The notes under the pieces were generated by a model. The model was not told where the DNA came from. It searched no databases and saw only the letters and a program-made list of their open reading frames with translations. Both the position numbers and the translations under genes were made by a program. From the IMG/VR virus record IMGVR_UViG_3300045988_031537: 44,853 nt of DNA; one strand, 5' to 3'. This document shows, piece by piece, positions 1-44,853 of this stretch (positions within the stretch are counted from its first letter, which is position 1; each line of letters begins with the position of its first letter). The DNA comes from a virus (Duplodnaviria > Heunggongvirae > Uroviricota > Caudoviricetes).

Positions 1-55
1 TACGGACTCACATCGGTGCATTCATACATATCTTTCATCCCAGCATCTCCGGTGA
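1..55. repeat. 55-bp terminal duplication, identical to 44799-44853 (circular or terminally redundant genome, or assembly overlap)
   Basis: Exact identity of the first and last 55 bases of the window. Confidence 0.9.
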
Positions 56-1165
56 AATAGTTAAACGTGCGACCTCGCCATATTCGGCGCTATAAGTAAT
101 TACATTCGCGCTACGGCCTGACATCCACCCGCCGCGCGAGGCGTAGGCGTCTTTAGCCGCTAAGGTTCGATGTTGCTCAACAATCATGTTACGGCTTTCT
201 ACAATCTTCTGATGGTGCAGGTGTCCTACATGGGCGTAGCTGTAAACACTCTCACCGAACGCTTTACGGAACTTGGCGATCATAACAGGCTCAATAGCGT
301 CGAAGCGTGCTTTATGCCCGTGGTGGAAGAACAGCGTCGTTTTGCCGTGTTGCACCATCTTGTAAACATCCGGCGACGTATCCACGATCACTCGGCTGTC
401 GTTTGAGTATAAAACCGTGAACATTTCGGCGAGCCATACGGAGCCGACGGGGTCGTGATTTCCTTGCACGATAAGCAAGCGAACATTTTTGTGCTTAACA
501 AGAGCCATATCAACAACACGACGCACCATACGAATCATGTAGCGAACTAGTTTCTGATAGCGAGTATCGGCGTCTAACACATGACGCGACTCAGGCGTAA
601 CGGCGTCCAGGCTATCGAAGTGCGCGAAGTCGCCAAGCAGGTTAATAACTCCAGTTCCTGCATCCGGCGCTTTCTGGAATGCCGCATCGAACCAGCGAGA
701 AAACAGGTCTTCCGCAATCTTCATATCCCAGTCGTCGCCACTCTCGTCGGCCCAGGCCAGCATACCAAGATGGAAATCAGATACAGTGTAAAGATTGAGT
801 AGTTTATCGTCACGTTTGGTGCGAACGGCTTTAACTGGTACAACGGGAGTAATCTCCGACTTCATGCCTTCGATTACGGCTTTCATCAACTCGACCTGAC
901 GTTCAGCGTCAGTGTCTGTCTTAACCCATTGCAACTTAGTGTTGCCGAACTCGTCCACAAGCGACGACGTTCCTTTAATCTTGTAGCCGTCAGGCACAAG
1001 GTGACTAACGTCGCGACCGTGGCCTACACCTTTCTTAGCCAGCTTCGCTTTACGGATACGGATAACGCGGTCTGAGATTCCGTATTTACGGGATATGTCG
1101 ATAATCTTTGTTCCGGCGTTCAATTCTTCCTGTAACTGTTCGTCGGTTATTTTAATCTGGGCCAT
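35..1165 (-). CDS. Calcineurin-like metallophosphoesterase (Mre11/SbcD-type motifs) with an N-terminal HTH-like domain
   Basis: Ordered motifs SDFHLG, GDFAHFD, GNHD, HHGH, GHLH; N-terminal ~100 aa looks like a DNA-binding HTH. Stop overlaps the start of ORF 44636-44836 across the junction (ATGA). Confidence 0.6.
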   Translation of the reverse strand: MAQIKITDEQLQEELNAGTKIIDISRKYGISDRVIRIRKAKLAKKGVGHGRDVSHLVPDGYKIKGTSSLVDEFGNTKLQWVKTDTDAERQVELMKAVIEGMKSEITPVVPVKAVRTKRDDKLLNLYTVSDFHLGMLAWADESGDDWDMKIAEDLFSRWFDAAFQKAPDAGTGVINLLGDFAHFDSLDAVTPESRHVLDADTRYQKLVRYMIRMVRRVVDMALVKHKNVRLLIVQGNHDPVGSVWLAEMFTVLYSNDSRVIVDTSPDVYKMVQHGKTTLFFHHGHKARFDAIEPVMIAKFRKAFGESVYSYAHVGHLHHQKIVESRNMIVEQHRTLAAKDAYASRGGWMSGRSANVITYSAEYGEVARLTISPEMLG

Positions 1166-1204
1166 GCTTTACTTCCTCGTGTTTAGGATTTGTCCTATAC
1201 TAGC

Positions 1205-1396
1205 TCACTTCTCTTTGACATTCGAGTTGCAAGCCCAGATTAAAATAAATACCCACGGCAGCAGAACCCAGCCAAGAAACAGATTGGCCATGAATATCGC
1301 TAATTTCGCTTTATGACCCCGCATATGGGCCACTAAAAACGGGATAAAATAAACTAAAACGATAATGATTAAGAAGAACATAGTAATACCTGTCAT
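1205..1396 (-). CDS. Small membrane protein resembling the superinfection immunity (Imm-like) family
   Basis: Internal ATG at 1396 preceded by AGGAG; product has ...YFIPFLVAHMRGHKAKLAIFMANLFLGWVLLPWVFILIWA, matching the YF.P..AH.RGH....NLFLGW..GW...IWA pattern of that family as I recall it. Upstream part of the track ORF is not protein-like. Confidence 0.5.
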   Translation of the reverse strand: MTGITMFFLIIIVLVYFIPFLVAHMRGHKAKLAIFMANLFLGWVLLPWVFILIWACNSNVKEK

Positions 1397-1438
1397 GGTG
1401 TAGCTCCTGTTTGAGTTAACATTGTTGGTGTAAGTGAA

Positions 1439-1467
1439 TAGTATCCTATTATGTTGGGGTGCGCAAG
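1439..1467 (-). promoter_or_regulatory. Sigma70-like promoter, TTGCGC-N17-TACTAT, reading leftward into the accessory island
   Basis: Reverse complement gives TTGCGC, 17-bp spacer, TACTAT; about 30 bp nearly identical to the promoter at 24103-24131. Confidence 0.45.
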
Positions 1468-1574
1468 TAATGTGATAGAATAATTTTGCGCCTAGTGTCG
1501 CACACGAAAAGCGGGTGGTTCCCGTCTGGCGCATTTACCATTAACCTGTAACCTCTTAACCAAAGGATTAAAGA

Positions 1575-6968: not shown

Positions 6969-9505
6969 TCCTGCACTACACGCGAAATGCCAACGGTGTT
7001 TTCGACCGCACAAAACACGTCGGGATGCCGATGGAGTTTGTCGTTAACCGTATTCCTGACGGCGTGCCTGTGCGCGTCTACCTCGGCGAAATTGGTGATG
7101 ATACAGACGTAACGGACGACTTCGAAGCGCTTAAAGACGAAGACGCGGTGTATCACATAGTAGAAGGAGCTGGTGGGGGTGCGCTTGTAGTAGGTGCGCT
7201 TGTTGCGTTGGTCGTCGTCGCGGCTACGGTTTTACTAACTAAGAAACCGAATCTGGCGGTAACAGCGACAAATAACCAAGCAAAATCCGCTAATAACAGC
7301 CTTACTGACCGCTCCAACAAGCCGCGTCCTTACGAGCGCTCCTATGACATCTGCGGGACTGTGCAGACAATCCCTAATGACCTGATGCAGACGTATAAGG
7401 CGTTCGACAATATCGGGAATTTACTAGAATACTCGTACTATGACGCCGGGCGGGGGCATCTACATATTGAGGCTGATGGGGTCACAGAGGGCGATACCCT
7501 GATAAGTGACATCACAGGCTCCTCTGTTGCCGTGTATGCGCCATATACCTCCCCGAACAACACCACATCTCCGCAGCTACAAATCGGGGACGTCATTGAC
7601 CAGAAACTCTATGTGACATACTCCAACGACGACGTTGACGGTATTGTACTGAAAGCGCCAAACGACATCGGGGCTAACCCAAGCGCCGATGGCACCGCGA
7701 AACGTATTTCAAACACCGGCTACATCTATGACCCGTCGGGTGACTCCGCTTTTTCTGAGTTTCTTAGCGTCGGTGATGTCGCGGTGCTGAGCAACTTTGA
7801 CGTTGCAGGCGTCACTAACCTTAACGGCTCGTTTGAGGTTTTATATGTCGATGACTTCGAAGTAAGACTGGCGGTGAATGGTGCTTCTAATTGGGACGCG
7901 TTAACCAGTGGGCAGACGTATACCTTAACAGAGCGTTCTGATACTTTCATTGGTCCGAGAGACACCTACGACGTATCCCTGACCGACTGGTATTACATGG
8001 TGCGCGGAGAAGTTGACCGGGTGCTTGCTAACGTTTCCGGGCAGAACGGCCTCTACAAATACGACGGTGGTTATAGCCGAGCCAATGTAACCGTAGAACT
8101 CCAGTACCAGATGATCGATTCTCAGCGTAACCCGATTGGTGATATCTACACCGTACAAGGCACCGTTACCGGTAATAGCACGGATTACGTTGGCACGTCT
8201 ATCTACGGGCAATTGCCTACTGCATCGCGTTTCCGCGCCCGTATGCGTCGTATAACGAATTTTGATAAGGACTACGACGGTACCGTAAGCGATGAGATAA
8301 CATTCATCAACCTGTACGGGCAGTCTCTGGACACAACCCCGCACTACGGCAACCGGACAACAGTACATTGCACCCGTAAACAGACACCGCGGGCCGCTAG
8401 TATTGACAACCCTGAACTGCGCATGATTGCGACTGAGATGTGTTACAAATACCTCGGAAATGGGGTATTCGATACGGTAATGACACCTAATACGCAGGCG
8501 GTGCAATCACTAATTCGACTGGCCCGCGACCCGGCGGTAGGTAACTTAGAACTGACAACCGCAAACATGGACAAGTTACTTGCCGTGCAGGAAGAGATTG
8601 AATCCTATTTTGGCAGCGAATTAGCGGGACAATTCTGCTACACGTTCGACGACTACGACACCACGATGCAGGACATCGTTCAGACTATAGCCGAAGCCGT
8701 GTTTTGTACTGCGTACCGTAAAGGTGCAGACATTATGCTGCGTTTCGACCGTCCGGTTGCAGGGCCTGAAATGGTGTTCACCCACCGCAGTAAAACTACC
8801 GGTACAGAGAAATGGACGCGCACATTCAACGATTCTACTACCTACGATAGCCTGTCGTTCTCGTACATCGACCCGGATACAAACGTACAGGAAACTATTT
8901 ATATCCCGGAAGAACTCGGTGCAAACACTGAGGAATACGAATCGAAAGGCGTGCGCAACTATCAGCAGGCGTACTGGCTGGCGTGGCGTCGCTATCAGCG
9001 CAATGCGTTAAGTAAAGTTGTCGTAGAGTTCGAAGCTACCGAAGAGGGGGCACTCGCTACACCGGGCGGCGTAATCAGTGTCGTTAAAGGCTCGCGTATC
9101 GCGCCGCAGGATGGCTATGTTGTTGCCGTTAATGGTCTTACGCTGACACTGTCACAGCCGGTTACGTTTACCCCCGGCGATGACCACTCCATCATCCTCA
9201 AGAAGCGCGATGGCTCCGTGCAGAGTATTTCTGTTATCAAAGGAAACCACGACCGCGAAGTGATTATGCTCTCCGCGCCGGAGGAAGCAATATACACGGG
9301 GAATAGCGCACTAAAAACTGAGTTTTCATTCGGCAACGAAGCAAGGCATAATGCACAGAAGATAGTTGTTTCTTCAATCGACCCGGGCGACGACCGCACG
9401 GTCAAGATTACAGGCTACAACTATGACGACGGATTCTATAAATACGACGGCGTCGCTCCATACGGTAGCGGTTTCTCCGACGGATTCAGCAATGGTTTTA
9501 ATTAA
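6959..9505 (+). CDS. Tail tip / central fibre protein (lambda J-like) with an N-terminal lambda I-like segment
   Basis: 848 aa; FRARMRRITNF resembles the lambda J IRMRRMT motif; N-terminal ~100 aa has a hydrophobic Gly/Ala/Val stretch like lambda gpI. Track start is TTG; the true start may be ATG 7025 or 7031. Confidence 0.65.
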   Translation: MAIILHYTRNANGVFDRTKHVGMPMEFVVNRIPDGVPVRVYLGEIGDDTDVTDDFEALKDEDAVYHIVEGAGGGALVVGALVALVVVAATVLLTKKPNLAVTATNNQAKSANNSLTDRSNKPRPYERSYDICGTVQTIPNDLMQTYKAFDNIGNLLEYSYYDAGRGHLHIEADGVTEGDTLISDITGSSVAVYAPYTSPNNTTSPQLQIGDVIDQKLYVTYSNDDVDGIVLKAPNDIGANPSADGTAKRISNTGYIYDPSGDSAFSEFLSVGDVAVLSNFDVAGVTNLNGSFEVLYVDDFEVRLAVNGASNWDALTSGQTYTLTERSDTFIGPRDTYDVSLTDWYYMVRGEVDRVLANVSGQNGLYKYDGGYSRANVTVELQYQMIDSQRNPIGDIYTVQGTVTGNSTDYVGTSIYGQLPTASRFRARMRRITNFDKDYDGTVSDEITFINLYGQSLDTTPHYGNRTTVHCTRKQTPRAASIDNPELRMIATEMCYKYLGNGVFDTVMTPNTQAVQSLIRLARDPAVGNLELTTANMDKLLAVQEEIESYFGSELAGQFCYTFDDYDTTMQDIVQTIAEAVFCTAYRKGADIMLRFDRPVAGPEMVFTHRSKTTGTEKWTRTFNDSTTYDSLSFSYIDPDTNVQETIYIPEELGANTEEYESKGVRNYQQAYWLAWRRYQRNALSKVVVEFEATEEGALATPGGVISVVKGSRIAPQDGYVVAVNGLTLTLSQPVTFTPGDDHSIILKKRDGSVQSISVIKGNHDREVIMLSAPEEAIYTGNSALKTEFSFGNEARHNAQKIVVSSIDPGDDRTVKITGYNYDDGFYKYDGVAPYGSGFSDGFSNGFN

Positions 9506-14225: not shown

Positions 14226-14353
14226 TCCGGCACCCACAGATAAATTGCGATGAACATACCCAATACGGCTACCATCATGCCGTATTGCCCCTCGTGACAG
14301 TAGACACCGGCGGCGAATCCCGCCAGTACCGCGATAATCAGTTTACTTAGCAT
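14222..14353 (-). CDS. Small hydrophobic peptide (43 aa)
   Basis: MLSKLIIAVLAGFAAGVYCHEGQYGMMVAVLGMFIAIYLWVPE; ATG overlaps the 3' end of the polymerase gene. Confidence 0.3.
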   Translation of the reverse strand: MLSKLIIAVLAGFAAGVYCHEGQYGMMVAVLGMFIAIYLWVPE

Positions 14354-17300
14354 AGCGCTTCATCTCCGCACCTTCCGCTACAAGAGGGAACCCCCCCGCC
14401 CACTCTGGCAACGCACACATTAATTTTTCCAGTTCAGGCACCGTGTAATCCGGCGTATCTGGAGTTTCACATACCAGTTCATCGTGTACCGAAAGCACGA
14501 TGGGATACCCGCCACCCTCAACATTAATCATCGCATATGCGAGTAAATCACGGCACAGCGCCTGAACAATGTTTTCGCAGGCTTTGCCGCCGTGTGTGTA
14601 CAGGGTAGTCCATTGGCGGGTTAACTGGTTTTCACCTTGGTACTTGATTCGCACATTCGTGTTTACCCGTCCGTCTTCGTCTGTTTCTTTTGTCACGCTA
14701 ACGCCGATTCCTGGATACGAGAGGATACGGCCCGACGGCAACTCCATACACAACCACCAACCGGGAACCTTCCTACCGGATGAATCGGTTTCTACTGTTC
14801 TCCAGATTCGGATAGCGCGCTCGCCATTCTTGCGCAGATGCGCCCCCGCCCAAAATTCACGACCCGGATTTCTTACAGCGGCTAAAATACCGTCTTTGAG
14901 GTCGCGCCAGAACGCTACTGTTTCCGGGTGTGACTCGCGCCACATACGCTTGATTGCATCGCAGGTGCGCCACACTTTCTTGTCCAGAATATACGACGGT
15001 CGGTCGTCCTTTTCACCTGGATGCGGGGGGTGCTTGGCTTCCTGGATGCGCGCCCACTCGTACCCGCGTGCAGTGGCCGACCAGATATGGTCCGGGAATG
15101 TACCGTCCATTGTTTTTGCCATCTCAATAAGGTCAAGACCTAGGTTTTTAGCAAACGTAACGAACGCTCCAACGCCGCCCTCGTAGCCGAGGCCAAGCTC
15201 GCAGTTATGCGCCACAAGAAAGCCAGAGTCTGAGGCTATAAGAAAACGGTTGCCGTCTTCCACATCAATCAGGTCGTACACCGGCTCGCAGTAGGTTAAT
15301 TTCCCGCTCAAGTTCAGCAATGCGGGCAACGGCTGCATCATACTTTCGTTGAAGCTCGGGTATTTGCCGTCTGTTTCGGCAGTTTTCAGAACGGCTGACA
15401 AACCGAATGTTTCCAGGTTCGTAGTTACCGTCTGTGTCGATTCTATCCATTTCGAGGTTCGGGTCATCCCAGCCTTCCAGAGTTTGAACATATCTAAGAA
15501 AAGACCTTTTATCAGTCCTCCACTGGTCGAATACCGTGATGCCTCTTGCCCCATAGTTTTTATAACCCTTATCCCTGGGGCTTGTTGTTCGCGTGATCGC
15601 CGCTGACAGCCGGTTGAGTAATCGCGTTCTGTGTGCATCATCCGGCATTGCGTCTTCGTAGCAGAAATACTGTTTACGATATTTTTTTGTTGCTTCAAGG
15701 GCGCAGCGGTTGCATTGAGTGGTTTTACCCGCTCTGACGTTGTCATAATAGACCCGCCCCGGCATCTCTCCGCAATCACATTGGACGAGTAGTTGTCTTT
15801 GGCCTTGTCGTTTTGGCAACTCGCGCAGGATAACCAAGCGTCCATACCTCTCTCCAGGGCTAGGCCCATCATATATCTGTTTGAAGCGAGTTGCTTTGCC
15901 TGCTTCCAGGAATGCGCCAAGATTTTGTGATCTTCGGTCATTAGCACCCCGTCCACATTTATTACCGGTTTCCACCCCATAAGGTGCGCGCCTTTTGTAT
16001 TCACCCATTTTTCACCGCTCCATACTTTATCTGTTGATGTAACCGCCATAATATCCTTAAATCCGCCATCGGTCAAAACCTGGGTATGACGGTGAAGGCA
16101 CGCTTTACCAATCTGGCGCAAGTCTTTACGTTCTTTCTTAATGTCATCAGGGTCCATACCGAACATCTTGCCTGCGGTTACACAGTAAATATCCAGTCCG
16201 GCGCGGAACGTATCGAGCGCGGTTTCTTCACCTGCCAGCCACGCAAGCCCGCGGCCTTCAACGTTAGAGTAATCGGCGACGACAAACTTATGCCCGGCTT
16301 CCGGTATTATGCAGCTACGCACAGTAGATGCCGTTAGTTTGGCTACATCAAAACGGCGATGGGCGCGGCCCTTAAGTAACGCTGAAATGCCTTTATCCAG
16401 CTCATCATCATGATAGTAACCGCGTGCCAGGTTCTGCGGCTGGAAGCCTTTACCTGCCCATCGCAGAGTACGTTTTGCCCCACCGTACTGCAAGCAACCG
16501 CGACGGCGGTCGTCCGAAGAGCGGCCCCGCAGCAGCGGGTTATATTTCGTGGACGCCGTGGACGCGGCCCCGAGGCGCATTTCGATAATCGTGCGTGCGT
16601 CGTCCGGTAAATCATCGTCGGCCAGCAGGTCATTCAGCGTTGACTTCTGCACGTTGTGGATTCGGTGCGCAGGGGCAAGTTCGCGCAGAATCGGCAGAAA
16701 GTCTTTACCAGTAAGCGAGCCGCCGTATTTGCGTTGGGCCTCTTCCTGTAACTGCGCTTTGTGTTTCTCCACGGCTTCAATCGCGGCTTCTGCCAGTGCC
16801 ACGTCAACCTTAAACCCGCGGTCGTTGATTAACTGGTCCAGTTCCAGTACACGGTCCTCGAACTCCGAGTTACCCCAACGTGGCAGCTTATGGAATACCT
16901 CACGCATCGCGGTAATATCGCTCACGGCGTACTTGATGAACAACGCCCATTCATCAGGGTGCGTCTCGGCGGTGTAGCGTCTGATTTTGTAGTTCTTCGG
17001 TGTCGGTTTAGAGAAACGCTGAATCAGCGCCTTGCCACGCTTATCCTTCGCATTGTCAGCAGACACGCCCAGCACTTCGCACAATGAGTCAAGTGAACCC
17101 GGCAATGCATGACGAAACGCCCAAATCATCGTATCAATGGTGTTGCGTACCGGAATATCAAAGCCCCAGCAGTGCTTCATTATGAGCCTGTCGAACATTG
17201 AGCCGTTGTGCCACACCATCTTAATGCGACTGTTAGGCTTAACCAGACGACGTAACGCGCGGTGCAAATCGCCCGGCATGTCACTGCCGTCGGTGCAATC

Positions 17301-17441
17301 CCACACCTGCACAGGCTCGTCGTCAAAAGCGTATGTACAGATAAGCACTTCGGTAGTTGGATGCTCGGCGTAAGCGTAGGAGCCGACTTTCTTTAAATCG
17401 GCTTCGGAGAATGTTTCAAAGTCTAAGAACAGGTAACTCAT
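14343..17441 (-). CDS. Family A DNA polymerase (3'-5' exonuclease plus polymerase domains) interrupted by an intein
   Basis: Exo motif DFETFS; polymerase motif A ADYSNVEGR, motif B RQIGKA/CELGLGYEGG split by the intein, motif C VHDELV. Confidence 0.85.
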   Translation of the reverse strand: MSYLFLDFETFSEADLKKVGSYAYAEHPTTEVLICTYAFDDEPVQVWDCTDGSDMPGDLHRALRRLVKPNSRIKMVWHNGSMFDRLIMKHCWGFDIPVRNTIDTMIWAFRHALPGSLDSLCEVLGVSADNAKDKRGKALIQRFSKPTPKNYKIRRYTAETHPDEWALFIKYAVSDITAMREVFHKLPRWGNSEFEDRVLELDQLINDRGFKVDVALAEAAIEAVEKHKAQLQEEAQRKYGGSLTGKDFLPILRELAPAHRIHNVQKSTLNDLLADDDLPDDARTIIEMRLGAASTASTKYNPLLRGRSSDDRRRGCLQYGGAKRTLRWAGKGFQPQNLARGYYHDDELDKGISALLKGRAHRRFDVAKLTASTVRSCIIPEAGHKFVVADYSNVEGRGLAWLAGEETALDTFRAGLDIYCVTAGKMFGMDPDDIKKERKDLRQIGKACLHRHTQVLTDGGFKDIMAVTSTDKVWSGEKWVNTKGAHLMGWKPVINVDGVLMTEDHKILAHSWKQAKQLASNRYMMGLALERGMDAWLSCASCQNDKAKDNYSSNVIAERCRGGSIMTTSERVKPLNATAAPLKQQKNIVNSISATKTQCRMMHTERDYSTGCQRRSREQQAPGIRVIKTMGQEASRYSTSGGLIKGLFLDMFKLWKAGMTRTSKWIESTQTVTTNLETFGLSAVLKTAETDGKYPSFNESMMQPLPALLNLSGKLTYCEPVYDLIDVEDGNRFLIASDSGFLVAHNCELGLGYEGGVGAFVTFAKNLGLDLIEMAKTMDGTFPDHIWSATARGYEWARIQEAKHPPHPGEKDDRPSYILDKKVWRTCDAIKRMWRESHPETVAFWRDLKDGILAAVRNPGREFWAGAHLRKNGERAIRIWRTVETDSSGRKVPGWWLCMELPSGRILSYPGIGVSVTKETDEDGRVNTNVRIKYQGENQLTRQWTTLYTHGGKACENIVQALCRDLLAYAMINVEGGGYPIVLSVHDELVCETPDTPDYTVPELEKLMCALPEWAGGFPLVAEGAEMKRYAK
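15204..16100 (-). mobile_element. Intein (299 aa) inserted in polymerase motif B
   Basis: Starts CLHRHTQVLTDGG (block A), has TEDHKILA (block B, TxxH), VYDLIDVEDGNRFLIA (block F) and ends LVAHN followed by Cys+1; codons checked at both junctions. Confidence 0.7.
15265..16008 (-). CDS. HNH-family homing endonuclease encoded inside the intein in a different reading frame
   Basis: Cys cluster CDCG...CNRC, AP2-like GYKNYGARGITVFDQW, HNH-like MDRIDTDGNYEPGNIRFVSRSENCRN; frame is -1 relative to the polymerase. Confidence 0.6.
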   Translation of the reverse strand: MGEYKRRAPYGVETGNKCGRGANDRRSQNLGAFLEAGKATRFKQIYDGPSPGERYGRLVILRELPKRQGQRQLLVQCDCGEMPGRVYYDNVRAGKTTQCNRCALEATKKYRKQYFCYEDAMPDDAHRTRLLNRLSAAITRTTSPRDKGYKNYGARGITVFDQWRTDKRSFLRYVQTLEGWDDPNLEMDRIDTDGNYEPGNIRFVSRSENCRNRRQIPELQRKYDAAVARIAELEREINLLRAGVRPD

Positions 17442-17500
17442 TATTTTCGACCCTTAGTAAAAAGGCCCAATGAAGGGCCTTAGTTAAATTGATTCAGAGA

Positions 17501-24035: not shown

Positions 24036-24102
24036 TTACCAAGTAATAAGAATAAAGGCACAACCCTACCTGAAGAATCACAACGGCAACGTAACTATTT
24101 TC

Positions 24103-24131
24103 TTGCACACCCCAACATAATAGGATACTAT
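24103..24131 (+). promoter_or_regulatory. Sigma70-like promoter, TTGCAC-N17-TACTAT
   Basis: Consensus-like hexamers; about 30 bp nearly identical to the promoter at 1439-1467. Confidence 0.5.
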
Positions 24132-24165
24132 TCACTTATCGAAACGAGACAGATGAGTGAGGGTT

Positions 24166-25329: not shown

Positions 25330-25358
25330 TTGCACGCTAGGATAGAATAGGTTACTAT
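25330..25358 (+). promoter_or_regulatory. Sigma70-like promoter, TTGCAC-N17-TACTAT
   Basis: Consensus-like hexamers with 17-bp spacing. Confidence 0.5.
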
Positions 25359-25387
25359 TCATTTACACAAACGAGAGGAGAGAGAAG

Positions 25388-36569: not shown

Positions 36570-36571
36570 TA

Positions 36572-36597
36572 AAAGGCCCCATAATGGGGCCTTAGTT
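36572..36597. terminator. Bidirectional terminator hairpin
   Basis: AAGGCCCCAT-AA-TGGGGCCTT between convergent genes. Confidence 0.55.
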
Positions 36598-37119
36598 TTA
36601 TTTAAATCGCGCAGGCATTAACACCATAAAGGCCGTGTTTGAAAATTGTATTTTGCATCCTCTGGTTTGGTCCTGGAAATCAAAACGAGCAATTTCATTT
36701 TTGTATGCCTTAGAAATCTTGTACGCGTCTGCCAAATAACGCAGGGTGAACCCTATACTATCGACAACACCCGGTGTGATGTGCGCCACGCGTCTCCAGT
36801 CAGGAAAGTTTCCTTCTACAACATCTACCGGAAGTGTACATATAAGCGCACGATTATCGTCATAGAAAGATACACTGCCGTTGTCGTGGTTTACCTCCGC
36901 GTAGTTAAATTTAGAAGGCTCTCTCCCTTTGATGTCTATGAGAGTCCCTTTCTCAACGTTGGTCTTCACATTGTCGCAGAACAATCTATGACCGTCCGTA
37001 GACACTATCAATCCTTCAGGGTCTATGTAAAAAGCGTTCAAATAGTAGCGAACATCATTTTTAGCCCTGCATATTTTCGCCCCTACATACGCAGGGAAAG
37101 TAATTACTGTAGTAACCAT
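36598..37119 (-). CDS. Truncated DNA polymerase III beta sliding clamp (DnaN)-like protein
   Basis: NDVRYYLNAFYIDPEGLIVSTDGHRLF and EGNFPDWRRV match E. coli DnaN domain II (QDVRYYLNG...VATDGHRLA; DGRFPDYRRV); C-terminus AFMVLMPARF resembles YVVMPMRL. Only 173 aa versus about 366 for DnaN. Confidence 0.6.
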   Translation of the reverse strand: MVTTVITFPAYVGAKICRAKNDVRYYLNAFYIDPEGLIVSTDGHRLFCDNVKTNVEKGTLIDIKGREPSKFNYAEVNHDNGSVSFYDDNRALICTLPVDVVEGNFPDWRRVAHITPGVVDSIGFTLRYLADAYKISKAYKNEIARFDFQDQTRGCKIQFSNTAFMVLMPARFK

Positions 37120-37146
37120 TTCTCATCTCCTGTTTAAGTTAACTGA

Positions 37147-37175
37147 ATAGTACCCTATTATGTTGGTGCGCGCAA
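37147..37175 (-). promoter_or_regulatory. Sigma70-like promoter, TTGCGC-N17-TACTAT, for the clamp-like gene
   Basis: Same family as the promoters at 1439 and 24103. Confidence 0.45.
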
Positions 37176-43219: not shown

Positions 43220-44386
43220 ATGGCTACAACTCCTTTTAAGGGCGCGAATACAGCGCAATTCTATGTGGCGGAAGTGACCCCGGGCGTAACACCTGATAAC
43301 CCGGTCTGGTCGCCGTTGCGTAACACGGGTGGCGTTCCTGCCATTACCCGTGACACACTGACCTCCAACGAACTGGATGGCAGTCGTGAAACTACGTCCA
43401 TCCGCACCGGTAACAAACAGGTTAGTGGAGAATACGCCATCGAGCTTAGTTCGAAAAGTCAGGACGACTGGTTGGCTGGTGCCTTAGGCTCTACGTGGCA
43501 ATCCGGTGTTTCTCTGTCCGGGCTGTCTATTACCGTCGCCCCGGCGGGAAAGACGTTCACCCGTGCTGATGGCAGCTTTATTACCGACGGCGTTGAAGTG
43601 GGCGACCTGATTGCGTTTACCGACTTAACAGGTGATAACGCCAAACCGTTTATCGTAACCGAGGTAAGTGCGACTGTTGTCACCGGTGCTGGTATCCAAC
43701 ATACGCTGACCACCGAGACCGCCACTACTGCGGCTAAAACTGGCGATAAGCTGGAAACCGGTAGCCAGTGTAAGACGTTCTCTATTCTCACATGGTACAA
43801 AGGCCAGTGTGGTGGGGCTGACGCGTACACGCTGACCAAAGGCGTGGAAGTTTCTGGCTTCACTATTGAGCAGGCCGTTAACGCTATGGTAACTGGCAGC
43901 TTCCCGTTCATCGGTCGCAGTCAGGAGATTCTCGCCACGCGGCCGTCTGGTTCTGATTTCTCTAAGGTGACTTTCACTGATGAGCCGTTCTCTTCGGTTG
44001 ACGTTTCTGTGTTCGACGGTTCCACGCCGTTGCGTTGCGATAGTCTGACCATTACCAACGATAACAGCGCGTCAGCACAGTTCGAACTCGGCAATACTAA
44101 TGTGGCGTTTGTGGAGCGTAGCCGCGCGGCTAACACCTTCTCCATCTCCGGCAAGCTGTACGACATGGCTATGATTCAGAAGTTTATCAACGAACAGCAG
44201 GTAGAGATTAACTCTATTCTGGCGGGGGTGAACGGGGCTATGTCTTTCAGTTTGAAACGTGCCGAGTTGACCGCAGTTACGCCAGAGATTGGCGGGCCTG
44301 AGTCAATCACTCAGAGCATAGAAGGACAGTCCACAGGCAACCAGTACCAGTCGTCTATTGTTATCCAGCGTATCACCTACGCATAA
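43220..44386 (+). CDS. Major tail protein
   Basis: 388 aa, Thr/Ser/Gly-rich, last gene of the neck series, followed by a strong terminator. Confidence 0.65.
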   Translation: MATTPFKGANTAQFYVAEVTPGVTPDNPVWSPLRNTGGVPAITRDTLTSNELDGSRETTSIRTGNKQVSGEYAIELSSKSQDDWLAGALGSTWQSGVSLSGLSITVAPAGKTFTRADGSFITDGVEVGDLIAFTDLTGDNAKPFIVTEVSATVVTGAGIQHTLTTETATTAAKTGDKLETGSQCKTFSILTWYKGQCGGADAYTLTKGVEVSGFTIEQAVNAMVTGSFPFIGRSQEILATRPSGSDFSKVTFTDEPFSSVDVSVFDGSTPLRCDSLTITNDNSASAQFELGNTNVAFVERSRAANTFSISGKLYDMAMIQKFINEQQVEINSILAGVNGAMSFSLKRAELTAVTPEIGGPESITQSIEGQSTGNQYQSSIVIQRITYA

Positions 44387-44388
44387 AA

Positions 44389-44415
44389 CTAAGGCCCCTT
44401 TCGGGGCCTTTTTCT
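44389..44415. terminator. Bidirectional terminator hairpin
   Basis: AAGGCCCC-TTTC-GGGGCCTT flanked by A/T runs, between convergent genes. Confidence 0.6.
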
Positions 44416-44646
44416 TTACTCATCAATATTATCCCTGTACTCCCGTAACTTCTCCAGGCTTTCAATTGCTTCTGCCAAGTCTGTTCCGGTGTCTTTGTGC
44501 CCGCGCAAGCCCATACACAAAAGTTTCTTTAATGCGTGCTGTAGTGCCGGGTCCCGGATATCGAAGGCGCGGAGCACATCATAAACGTCTACAGTCATGG
44601 TGCTGCCGTGGGTGTTTGTCATTGTGCGGTTGTACTTATTTGTCAC
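44416..44646 (-). CDS. Hypothetical protein (accessory island)
   Basis: 76-aa ORF, last gene of the leftward island. Confidence 0.4.
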   Translation of the reverse strand: MTNKYNRTMTNTHGSTMTVDVYDVLRAFDIRDPALQHALKKLLCMGLRGHKDTGTDLAEAIESLEKLREYRDNIDE

Positions 44647-44836
44647 GGTTAACTCTCTTAAATCGGGCTATGCCTGACTCGTTAATGCTGCCTATTTCAA
44701 AGAAGCTGCGATATTTAGGCGAATACATTCTTACGTCGCCGTTCTCTAGGGTTACCCCTTCATATACAGCGCCTACTTCGAATCCATTTTTCTCCGCGTA
44801 CGGACTCACATCGGTGCATTCATACATATCTTTCAT
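44636..44836 (-). CDS. Hypothetical protein (accessory island)
   Basis: 66-aa ORF; start lies in the terminal duplication and overlaps the stop of the phosphoesterase gene across the junction. Confidence 0.4.
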   Translation of the reverse strand: MKDMYECTDVSPYAEKNGFEVGAVYEGVTLENGDVRMYSPKYRSFFEIGSINESGIARFKRVNRDK

Positions 44837-44853
44837 CCCAGCATCTCCGGTGA
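44799..44853. repeat. 55-bp terminal duplication, identical to 1-55
   Basis: Exact identity with the window start. Confidence 0.9.

Follow-up and report, generated by a model that had tools for sequence, protein, structure and literature searches.

Autonomous units of promoter, gene and terminator that lie between structural genes and whose first product is targeted to the envelope have been described as lambdoid morons and as the cor- or Llp-type exclusion genes in the tail regions of T1- and T5-like phages; in T1, for instance, the tail genes are followed by a cor gene read leftward. Among the Guernseyvirinae, genomes such as K1G/K1H, Schulenburg, Snoke, Ivi, Jersey and SETP3 harbor a cassette with the same position, orientation and gene order as the one considered here. 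We analysed this cassette in the IMG/VR virus record IMGVR_UViG_3300045988_031537 (Caudoviricetes), a stretch of 44,853 nucleotides that is hereafter referred to as the window. Four minus-strand genes in its plus-strand tail module encode a 63-amino-acid (aa) Imm protein, a fusion of helix-turn-helix (HTH) and metallophosphoesterase (MPE) domains, and two small proteins, p66 and p76. We consider it probable that they form an autonomous cassette, in which an Imm-type exclusion protein and a DNA-directed HTH-MPE would be combined with swappable accessories of nucleotide metabolism.

As such, the cassette is an already known feature, since its gene order, gene names, the core status of imm and its palindromic promoter motif have all been published. 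The GenBank records of K1G, Schulenburg, Ivi and further phages already show the gene order and the flanking tail genes, with 'superinfection immunity protein' and 'DNA repair exonuclease/phosphoesterase' as product names; the Jersey record shares this layout but gives none of its products a name. Deposited Kagunavirus and Jerseyvirus genomes with the cassette number in the hundreds, and many Kagunavirus records share the Imm–MPE stretch at 90–94% DNA identity. Schulenburg has a fifth gene in addition to the four found here, and the gene sets of two IMG/VR loci (L012 and L022) are exactly that of the window. Differences are confined to the combination of optional modules: K1G has a HAD phosphatase and a P-loop kinase in place of p66 and p76, Imm is replaced by a secreted 108-aa protein in K1H-type phages, and Jersey has an additional HNH endonuclease and a Rha/Ant protein. 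In the Jerseyviruses, imm was reported as a core gene of all members (PMC8425127). As far as we found, what is new is a comparative picture, incremental to these data, of cargo exchange between two slots, alternation of Imm with secreted proteins, and mutually exclusive distal modules.

A preliminary description of the window had termed the four genes a moron-type cassette with a supposed role in superinfection exclusion or host takeover. The predicted promoter and terminator of their own and the orientation opposite to the tail genes agree with this term, but its sense of prophage expression does not suit a virulent phage. As the genera concerned are described as strictly lytic (PMC8425127, PMC9825357), the classical moron definition is probably inapplicable. 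Unlike morons and cor/Llp-type genes, the cassette resides in a virulent phage devoid of prophage expression, and comprises multiple genes, one of which encodes a large enzyme fixed in the genus.

Genome context and cassette layout

The first 55 bases of the window (1–55) are an exact duplication of its last 55 (44799–44853), indicating a closed genome of 44,798 bp, circular or circularly permuted, with an assembly overlap. On this 44,798-bp circle, the four minus-strand genes are contiguous across the window ends. Bases 1–1600 found matches in 271 phage records, with Escherichia phage Ivi as the best (93.6% identity), and the named matches belonged to two genera of the subfamily Guernseyvirinae, Kagunavirus and Jerseyvirus. 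Judged by its ends and these matches, the window is a closed Kagunavirus genome.

The cassette occupies the interval, here called slot 1, between the tail tube gene on its left (43220–44386, plus strand; Phage_tube_2, E = 7e-38) and two open reading frames (ORFs) for tail assembly chaperones on its right (1575–1991, Phage_TAC_4, and 1997–2356, Phage_TAC_18; both plus strand, assigned by Pfam profiles). In the K1G record, the chaperone product is annotated as frameshift-joined. All four minus-strand ORFs of the preliminary description are indeed present: imm (1205–1396; PF14373, phrog_1039), the HTH-MPE gene (35–1165, 376 aa; phrog_704), p66 (44636–44836, 66 aa), whose start overlaps the MPE stop, and p76 (44416–44646, 76 aa; phrog_2452), which begins with GTG. 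The translational coupling that had been proposed applies to the last three, as the MPE stop and the p66 start share an ATGA and 11 nt are common to p66 and p76; Imm and the MPE, in contrast, are separated by 39 nt and hence not overlap-coupled. With 48.1%, the guanine–cytosine (GC) content of the cassette falls within that of the genome (50.7 ± 2.6%) and gives no sign of recent acquisition.

At its distal end, the cassette shares an intrinsic terminator (44391–44410; 8-bp stem with six GC pairs, tetraloop) with the converging tail tube gene. The hairpin scored on both strands and was predicted to fold at –15.4 and –17.4 kcal/mol (z = –4.2 and –3.7), in line with the bidirectional terminator originally placed here. 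It is a member of a repeated hairpin family, further copies of which lie at 36571–36601 (31 nt, 84%), at the end of a second cassette slot described below (slot 2), and at 17459–17485.

Promoter family and palindromic core

Upstream of imm, a sigma-70-like cassette promoter is predicted on the minus strand (1435–1466), consisting of a –35 element TTGCGC, a 17-nt spacer and a –10 element TACTAT, with an embedded AATAG-N4-CTATT palindrome. The near-identity to a promoter at 24103 that had been noted earlier holds, as positions 1431–1470 (minus) and 24099–24138 (plus) are 95% identical over 40 nt, whereas the accompanying label 'early' was deduced rather than observed. This sister promoter (24103–24134, plus strand) heads a rightward small-ORF cluster and adjoins the divergent replication module. 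A further copy (37144–37175, minus strand) precedes a 173-aa clamp-like gene in slot 2, and a fourth, more diverged one (25330–25361, plus strand) is located within the rightward cluster itself. Four matches to the pattern TTGCRC-N8-ATAATAG-NN-TACTATTCA were counted in the window (1435 minus, 24103 plus, 25330 plus and 37144 minus), compared to 0.00 in 100 shuffles, and each of the four copies is oriented toward genes of its own strand. Among relatives, all Kagunavirus loci examined have the motif at the right border of slot 1, independent of the identity of the first gene; it also marks slot 2 and, in some loci, a third leftward site.

Headed by a promoter of its own, the cassette may be expressed separately from the surrounding tail genes. 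In the one published Kagunavirus time course, imm grouped with the DNA polymerase and methylase genes and not with the flanking tail genes (PMC12645636), which supports a transcription of imm that is independent of the tail genes.

A search for the palindromic core alone (TAATAG-N3-ACTATTCA) returned nine sites in the window, at 1435, 13859, 18188, 20651, 20695, 24118, 25345, 28929 and 37144, against 0.25 expected. At the 18188 and 20651 sites, the core is located on the opposite strand within the spacer of near-consensus TTGACA-N17-TATAGT promoters facing the leftward replication genes. The core thus occurs in two promoter settings, that is, two promoter classes share one palindrome, which may be bound as an operator by an HTH regulator of the phage. 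The core has previously been published as a seven-copy PHIRE motif in fBC-Eco01, where it was assigned to an RNA polymerase of the phage (PMC9825357); the annotation of the related phage Ivi lists no polymerase of this type. Owing to the palindromic nature of the promoter core, weak sigma-70-like promoters can also be read on the plus strand at 1416–1453 (TTAACA-N17-TAGTAT and TTGGTG-N17-TATTAT). These are directed into the tail chaperone genes and may re-initiate transcription of tail genes beyond the tube terminator.

The Imm protein

The Imm-like membrane protein of the preliminary description proved to be a true homolog of T4 Imm. It covers the complete PF14373 (Imm_superinfect) profile (positions 1–42 of 42) with 51.6 bits (cutoff 27.9; E = 8.7e-14), T4 Imm itself reaching 58.2 bits, and matches phrog_1039 at E = 1.4e-23. 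A direct BLASTP comparison with T4 Imm yielded 30% identity over 54 aa (E = 2e-12), and hydropathy analysis revealed two hydrophobic segments (residues ~1–28 and 31–58). Both are thus small two-segment membrane proteins above the Pfam gathering score; however, T4 Imm is longer (83 vs. 63 aa), and the cassette protein stems from a siphovirus with a different injection apparatus.

Two features make the 63-aa form the credible gene: an AGGAG lies 7 nt before its ATG, and the ATG of a 109-aa form annotated elsewhere lies upstream of the promoter. Database calls that run over the promoter include this 109-aa Imm (Schulenburg; L001 5205–5534) and a 30-aa ORF (Ivi; L005 20024–20116). Both, in the region equivalent to window positions 1397–1541, are situated upstream of or across the conserved promoter and probably represent over-calls. 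The sequence upstream of Imm is kept even where another gene replaces Imm.

Variation of slot 1 and slot 2 among relatives

With the tail tube protein as anchor, we fetched 80 IMG/VR loci, 76 of which contained both anchors; 29 loci with a tube identity of at least 88% were classed as Kagunavirus-like and the other 47 as more distant. The tube-to-chaperone gap ranged from 93 to 3141 bp across the 76 loci. Among the Kagunavirus-like loci, the MPE was present in 29 of 29, Imm in 19, p76 in 16 and p66 in five. At least nine of the ten Imm-less loci carry an unrelated 108-aa signal-peptide protein instead. The distal cargo consisted of either p76 (16 loci) or a HAD_PNKP phosphatase together with a P-loop kinase (13 loci), but never both, and HNH endonucleases, a Rha/Ant protein and a 57-aa ORF were variably present.

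The more distant loci, whose gaps alone span the whole range from 93 bp (empty) to 3141 bp, contained the MPE in slot 1 in 11 of 47 cases and an essentially empty gap in eight, while several harbored a single envelope-targeted protein only, namely a membrane protein of the Imm or VLC gp44 type or a secreted one of ~120–137 aa. The two secreted types that replace Imm do not align to each other. They are unrelated to Imm and, while occupying its position in sister phages, lack similarity to T4 Sp, for which a candidate homology was rejected (E = 9.2). Two of the 36 distant loci without a slot-1 MPE (L047 and L079) carry the gene upstream of the spanin gene. In Klebsiella phage VLCpiS11a, another member of the Guernseyvirinae, no MPE homolog was found anywhere in the complete genome.

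The second leftward cassette of the window, slot 2 (36571–37175, minus strand), is located within the head module between an Ig-like head gene and the spanin gene. It contains the 173-aa clamp-like gene (36598–37119; weak DNA_pol3_beta_2 match). This second cassette was detected in ~10 of 29 Kagunavirus-like loci with a scorable slot. In two capsid-anchored loci (L132 and L135), it is the MPE, 80–81% identical to that of the window, that resides in slot 2. In the Jersey-like L132 (~7770–8030), four GGAATAATT repeats precede a TTGCGT-N17-TAGTAT promoter of the slot-2 MPE, and the hairpin after this gene is nearly identical to the slot-1 terminator of the window. MPE alleles are also mosaic between genera. 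For example, the MPE of L118 shares 68% identity with that of the window in its N-terminal part and 47% in its C-terminal part, and L093 has a Kagunavirus capsid (98%), yet a Jersey-type MPE (58%) and HNH endonuclease (95%).

Taken as sequence comparisons, these data indicate that slot 1 is a real, bounded and exchangeable cargo site, that the cassette of the window is typical of its genus and not a local acquisition, and that the slot is a standard, recombination-prone feature of Kagunavirus and Jerseyvirus genomes. The preliminary description had spoken of an accessory island and named core-gene status in related phages as evidence to the contrary. Within the genus such evidence exists, the MPE being present in all 29 Kagunavirus-like loci and the region recurring in 271 records, so that the cassette is not peculiar to this phage; near-empty slots and a genome without the MPE are found further away, as illustrated by the gap of varying length, the eight near-empty gaps and the MPE-less VLCpiS11a.

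Family, fold and active site of the HTH-MPE

The HTH-MPE matches phrog_704 at E = 3.7e-160, with residues 5–375 aligned to positions 3–389 of the 390-position profile; the name of this family, 'DNA repair exonuclease', is an annotation label and not an experimentally established function. Scores against the Pfam models Metallophos (22.0 bits, cutoff 27) and Metallophos_2 (17.2 bits, cutoff 21.5) remained below gathering score, and Metallophos-type matches at E < 0.01 were obtained for 11 of 59 homologs. The phrog_704 family is thus too divergent for the Pfam models, and its assignment as an MPE rests on motifs and fold. Relatives numbered 4556 among cluster representatives at 50% identity and were mostly 370–400 aa long.

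In an alignment of 59 relatives (32–48% identity), nine residues of the five metal-ligand motifs (D130, H132, G178, D179, N236, H237, H282, G314 and H317) are invariant, and H315 is conserved in at least 90%; the classical metal ligands D130, H132, D179, N236, H237, H282 and H317 are among the invariant ones. The AlphaFold model (predicted local distance difference test score, pLDDT, 90.8) displays the alpha/beta sandwich of the MPE fold. Three parts can be distinguished: a three-helix HTH (residues 8–44), a conserved beta-hairpin plus helix (61–103), and an MPE core of 258 residues (119–376). As the N-termini of family members match Sigma70_r4_2, GerE and other HTH models, the N-terminal HTH is confirmed at the family level. 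The best fold matches are nuclease-type MPEs, namely PolD DP1, Mre11 and SbcD. In searches against the PDB, the single sequence gave nothing significant, and the profile gave a weak match to a GerE HTH (E = 0.04) and SbcD/Mre11 at E = 0.5–1.0.

The preliminary description had spoken of an HTH-fused MPE with Mre11/SbcD-type motifs. The HTH and the intact catalytic motifs were borne out, but membership in the Mre11/SbcD family was not, because the profile match stayed at E ~0.5, the protein ends with its 258-residue core and lacks a C-terminal capping domain, and an SMC-type ATPase is missing from the large replication-module ORFs. The latter encode a SNF2 helicase, PolA, a single-stranded DNA-binding protein (SSB), a PD-(D/E)XK exonuclease and a primase-helicase; neither an SbcC/Rad50 ATPase nor a DP2 partner was found among them, and small ORFs were partly scanned. 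From Mre11/SbcD and PolD DP1, to which it is 12–18% identical, the protein further differs in its unique N-terminal module of HTH and beta-hairpin. Based on the model, 'nuclease-like MPE' is the best description.

Possible roles of the HTH-MPE

By tblastn, the MPE was found in 2042 phage records, including all T1-like phages sampled and one T7-like phage. T1 (gp16) and phage tunus encode it after a helicase, VRR-NUC and Dam and before the lysis genes. In the T7-like phage Lidtsur, the gene order is DNA polymerase, exonuclease, Endo VII, MPE and PNKP-type phosphatase, and in a Vibrio phage the MPE is flanked by an OB-fold protein and a DNA-binding protein. Together with the HTH and the fold, these DNA-metabolism neighbourhoods point to DNA as the substrate. 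On the same grounds, an HTH-tethered, binuclear-metal phosphodiesterase would most likely cut or trim DNA, be it for host chromosome breakdown and takeover or for the processing of phage DNA ends.

A HAD phosphatase follows the MPE directly in two unrelated lineages (Lidtsur, L163 4001–5824; K1G, L004 3001–5167), which share 52.7% identity in the MPE and 46% in the PNKP-type HAD phosphatase. The pairing suggests co-transfer or a functional link between the two genes. A general linkage of MPE and PNK was considered and discarded, as it holds in K1G-type phages and Lidtsur and fails in T1 and in the window.

A broader role can be put forward tentatively, as a possibility. The HTH-MPE may be a widespread, uncharacterised phage nuclease that is tethered to DNA by its HTH and degrades or nicks the host chromosome early, thereby silencing defences or feeding nucleotide pools, and that in the Guernseyvirinae belongs to a cassette hopping between two slots marked by promoter and terminator repeats. 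This would parallel gp48 of mycobacteriophage A10ZJ24, for which early expression, host DNA damage and counter-defence were reported (PMC12287305). The cluster A proteins A10ZJ24 gp48 and Bxb1 gp47 are likewise phage-encoded MPEs, but they constitute a separate MPE family of ~255 aa that lacks the HTH and matches at the motif level only. Although unrelated by family, gp48 is the one phage MPE of such a kind for which experiments provide a precedent.

Alternatively, the MPE might be a core replication or recombination nuclease, akin to Mre11/SbcD or PolD DP1, that acts on DNA ends, hairpins or headful-packaging concatemers, in which case it would owe its location among the tail genes to historical accident rather than to an accessory role. 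Its fixation in all 29 Kagunavirus-like loci is compatible with such a function, as are its placement beside helicase, VRR-NUC and Dam genes in T1-like phages and between Endo VII and PNK in Lidtsur, its top fold matches (DP1, Mre11 and SbcD), and a GC content of the gene (50.3%) that matches the genome (50.7%). We nevertheless regard this explanation as unlikely: VLCpiS11a does without a homolog in its complete genome, 36 of the 47 distant loci lack a slot-1 MPE (even though L047 and L079 have one upstream of the spanin gene), no SbcC/Rad50-like ATPase is encoded by the large replication-module ORFs, the phage already possesses a pair of exonuclease and SSB, and the MPE gene moves between slots.

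Foldseek placed the cyclic-nucleotide phosphodiesterase Rv0805 near the top of its matches to the MPE, and the gene sits in a variable cargo slot beside an exclusion gene. Both observations would fit an anti-defence phosphodiesterase that destroys immune second messengers, such as cyclic oligonucleotides or cyclic nucleoside monophosphates (cNMPs), a role that we deem decidedly improbable for this protein.

A still poorer candidate is an end-healing module, in which the MPE and PNKP-type enzymes would jointly repair RNA or DNA that ribotoxins or nucleases of the host have cleaved. In bacterial Pnkp, an MPE domain heals 2′,3′-cyclic phosphate ends, and a HAD_PNKP phosphatase, accompanied by a P-loop kinase, directly follows the MPE in K1G-type Kagunaviruses, the phosphatase (46% identity) also in the unrelated Lidtsur. 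Yet in the window p66 and p76 take the place of PNKP and kinase, no ligase was found among the scanned proteins or in the Ivi annotation, the pnk gene of T1 is ~35 kb away from the MPE, and the HTH fusion would be left unexplained.

That the HTH-MPE is mainly a DNA-binding regulator of the AATAG-N4-CTATT promoter core, with its MPE domain as a sensor or modulator, is hardly credible, for despite the nine palindromic cores (against 0.25 expected), one of them in the cassette promoter, and an N-terminal domain of the Sigma70_r4/GerE type, the catalytic metal ligands are all invariant across a very large family, relatives outside Kagunavirus retain the protein and not the motif, and dedicated small HTH regulators are encoded beside the early control region.

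Distal genes and other features

p66 is a soluble 66-aa protein that matched no family in Pfam, PHROG, NCBIfam or PADLOC and has no paralog in the window. p76, also soluble, matches phrog_2452 at 8e-37, and its AlphaFold2 model (pLDDT 87.8) comprises a beta-hairpin and three helices. Foldseek searches of BFVD with this model returned unnamed phage proteins as the strongest matches (E down to 1.5e-7), along with weak matches to SaV-like, DUF3310 and nucleotide-kinase entries (E = 0.01–0.06; query TM-scores 0.55–0.70). A supposed likeness of p76 to DUF3310 found no support in Pfam, with no DUF3310 match for any of 18 homologs at E ≤ 5, and weak support in the fold search. NCBIfam and PADLOC yielded no meaningful matches for any of the four cassette proteins.

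Outside the cassette, the DNA polymerase ORF (14343–17441, minus strand) measures 1032 aa, compared to 746 aa in phage Ivi. It carries an insertion of ~293 aa, from GKA|C to VAHN|C, with an intein signature (Cys1, His-Asn, Cys+1).

Discussion

The anatomy of the cassette, the homologies of its products, the intact active site of the MPE and the modular variation of slot 1 describe a bounded unit among tail genes. For its expression timing, substrates and roles, we propose the following course of events. Host RNA polymerase would initiate at the sigma-70-like promoter, which is of the same class as that of the rightward small-gene cluster, and leftward transcription would end at the hairpin that serves the tail tube gene as terminator, too. 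By analogy to the T4 paradigm, the two-helix inner-membrane Imm would most likely block DNA entry of later-arriving phages, while the HTH-MPE would act on DNA as outlined above. The distal genes may then supply swappable accessories of nucleotide or nucleic-acid metabolism, here p66 and the SaV/DUF3310-like p76, in sister phages the PNKP-type HAD phosphatase and the P-loop kinase.

Several points weigh against this proposal. To our knowledge, T4 Imm is the only member of the Imm family with a demonstrated function. The cassette promoter is a consensus-level prediction. For the MPE, sequence profiles gave no significant link to Mre11/SbcD (E ~0.5), kinship with the mycobacteriophage MPEs (Bxb1 gp47 and A10ZJ24 gp48) was rejected at an hhalign probability of 8%, and our literature searches found no activity, substrate or phenotype for any phrog_704 member; neither did they return anything usable in the way of a functional paper on this family or on host-DNA degradation genes of T1. 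Finally, the Kagunavirus time course placed imm in the class 'late', peaking at 110 min at the earliest, with tail genes peaking earlier, in conflict with an early promoter (PMC12645636). As sampling in that study was coarse and probably spanned several infection cycles, it does not settle early versus late expression.

For the annotation of these phages, the comparison implies that several database entries are apparently wrong, including the 109-aa Imm, the ORF over the promoter, 'DNA polymerase II small subunit', 'phosphodiesterase' (for p76) and 'phage RNA polymerase promoters'. The first slot position always encodes an envelope-targeted product, which is either secreted or a membrane protein of the Imm or VLC gp44 type. 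Exclusion genes could thus be conveniently mined from this slot, and payloads be added there to therapeutic Kagunaviruses with the structural genes left untouched. The HTH-MPE, for its part, ranks among the more abundant phage enzymes without a tested function, and as it is dispensable in at least one member of the subfamily, a knockout should be feasible.

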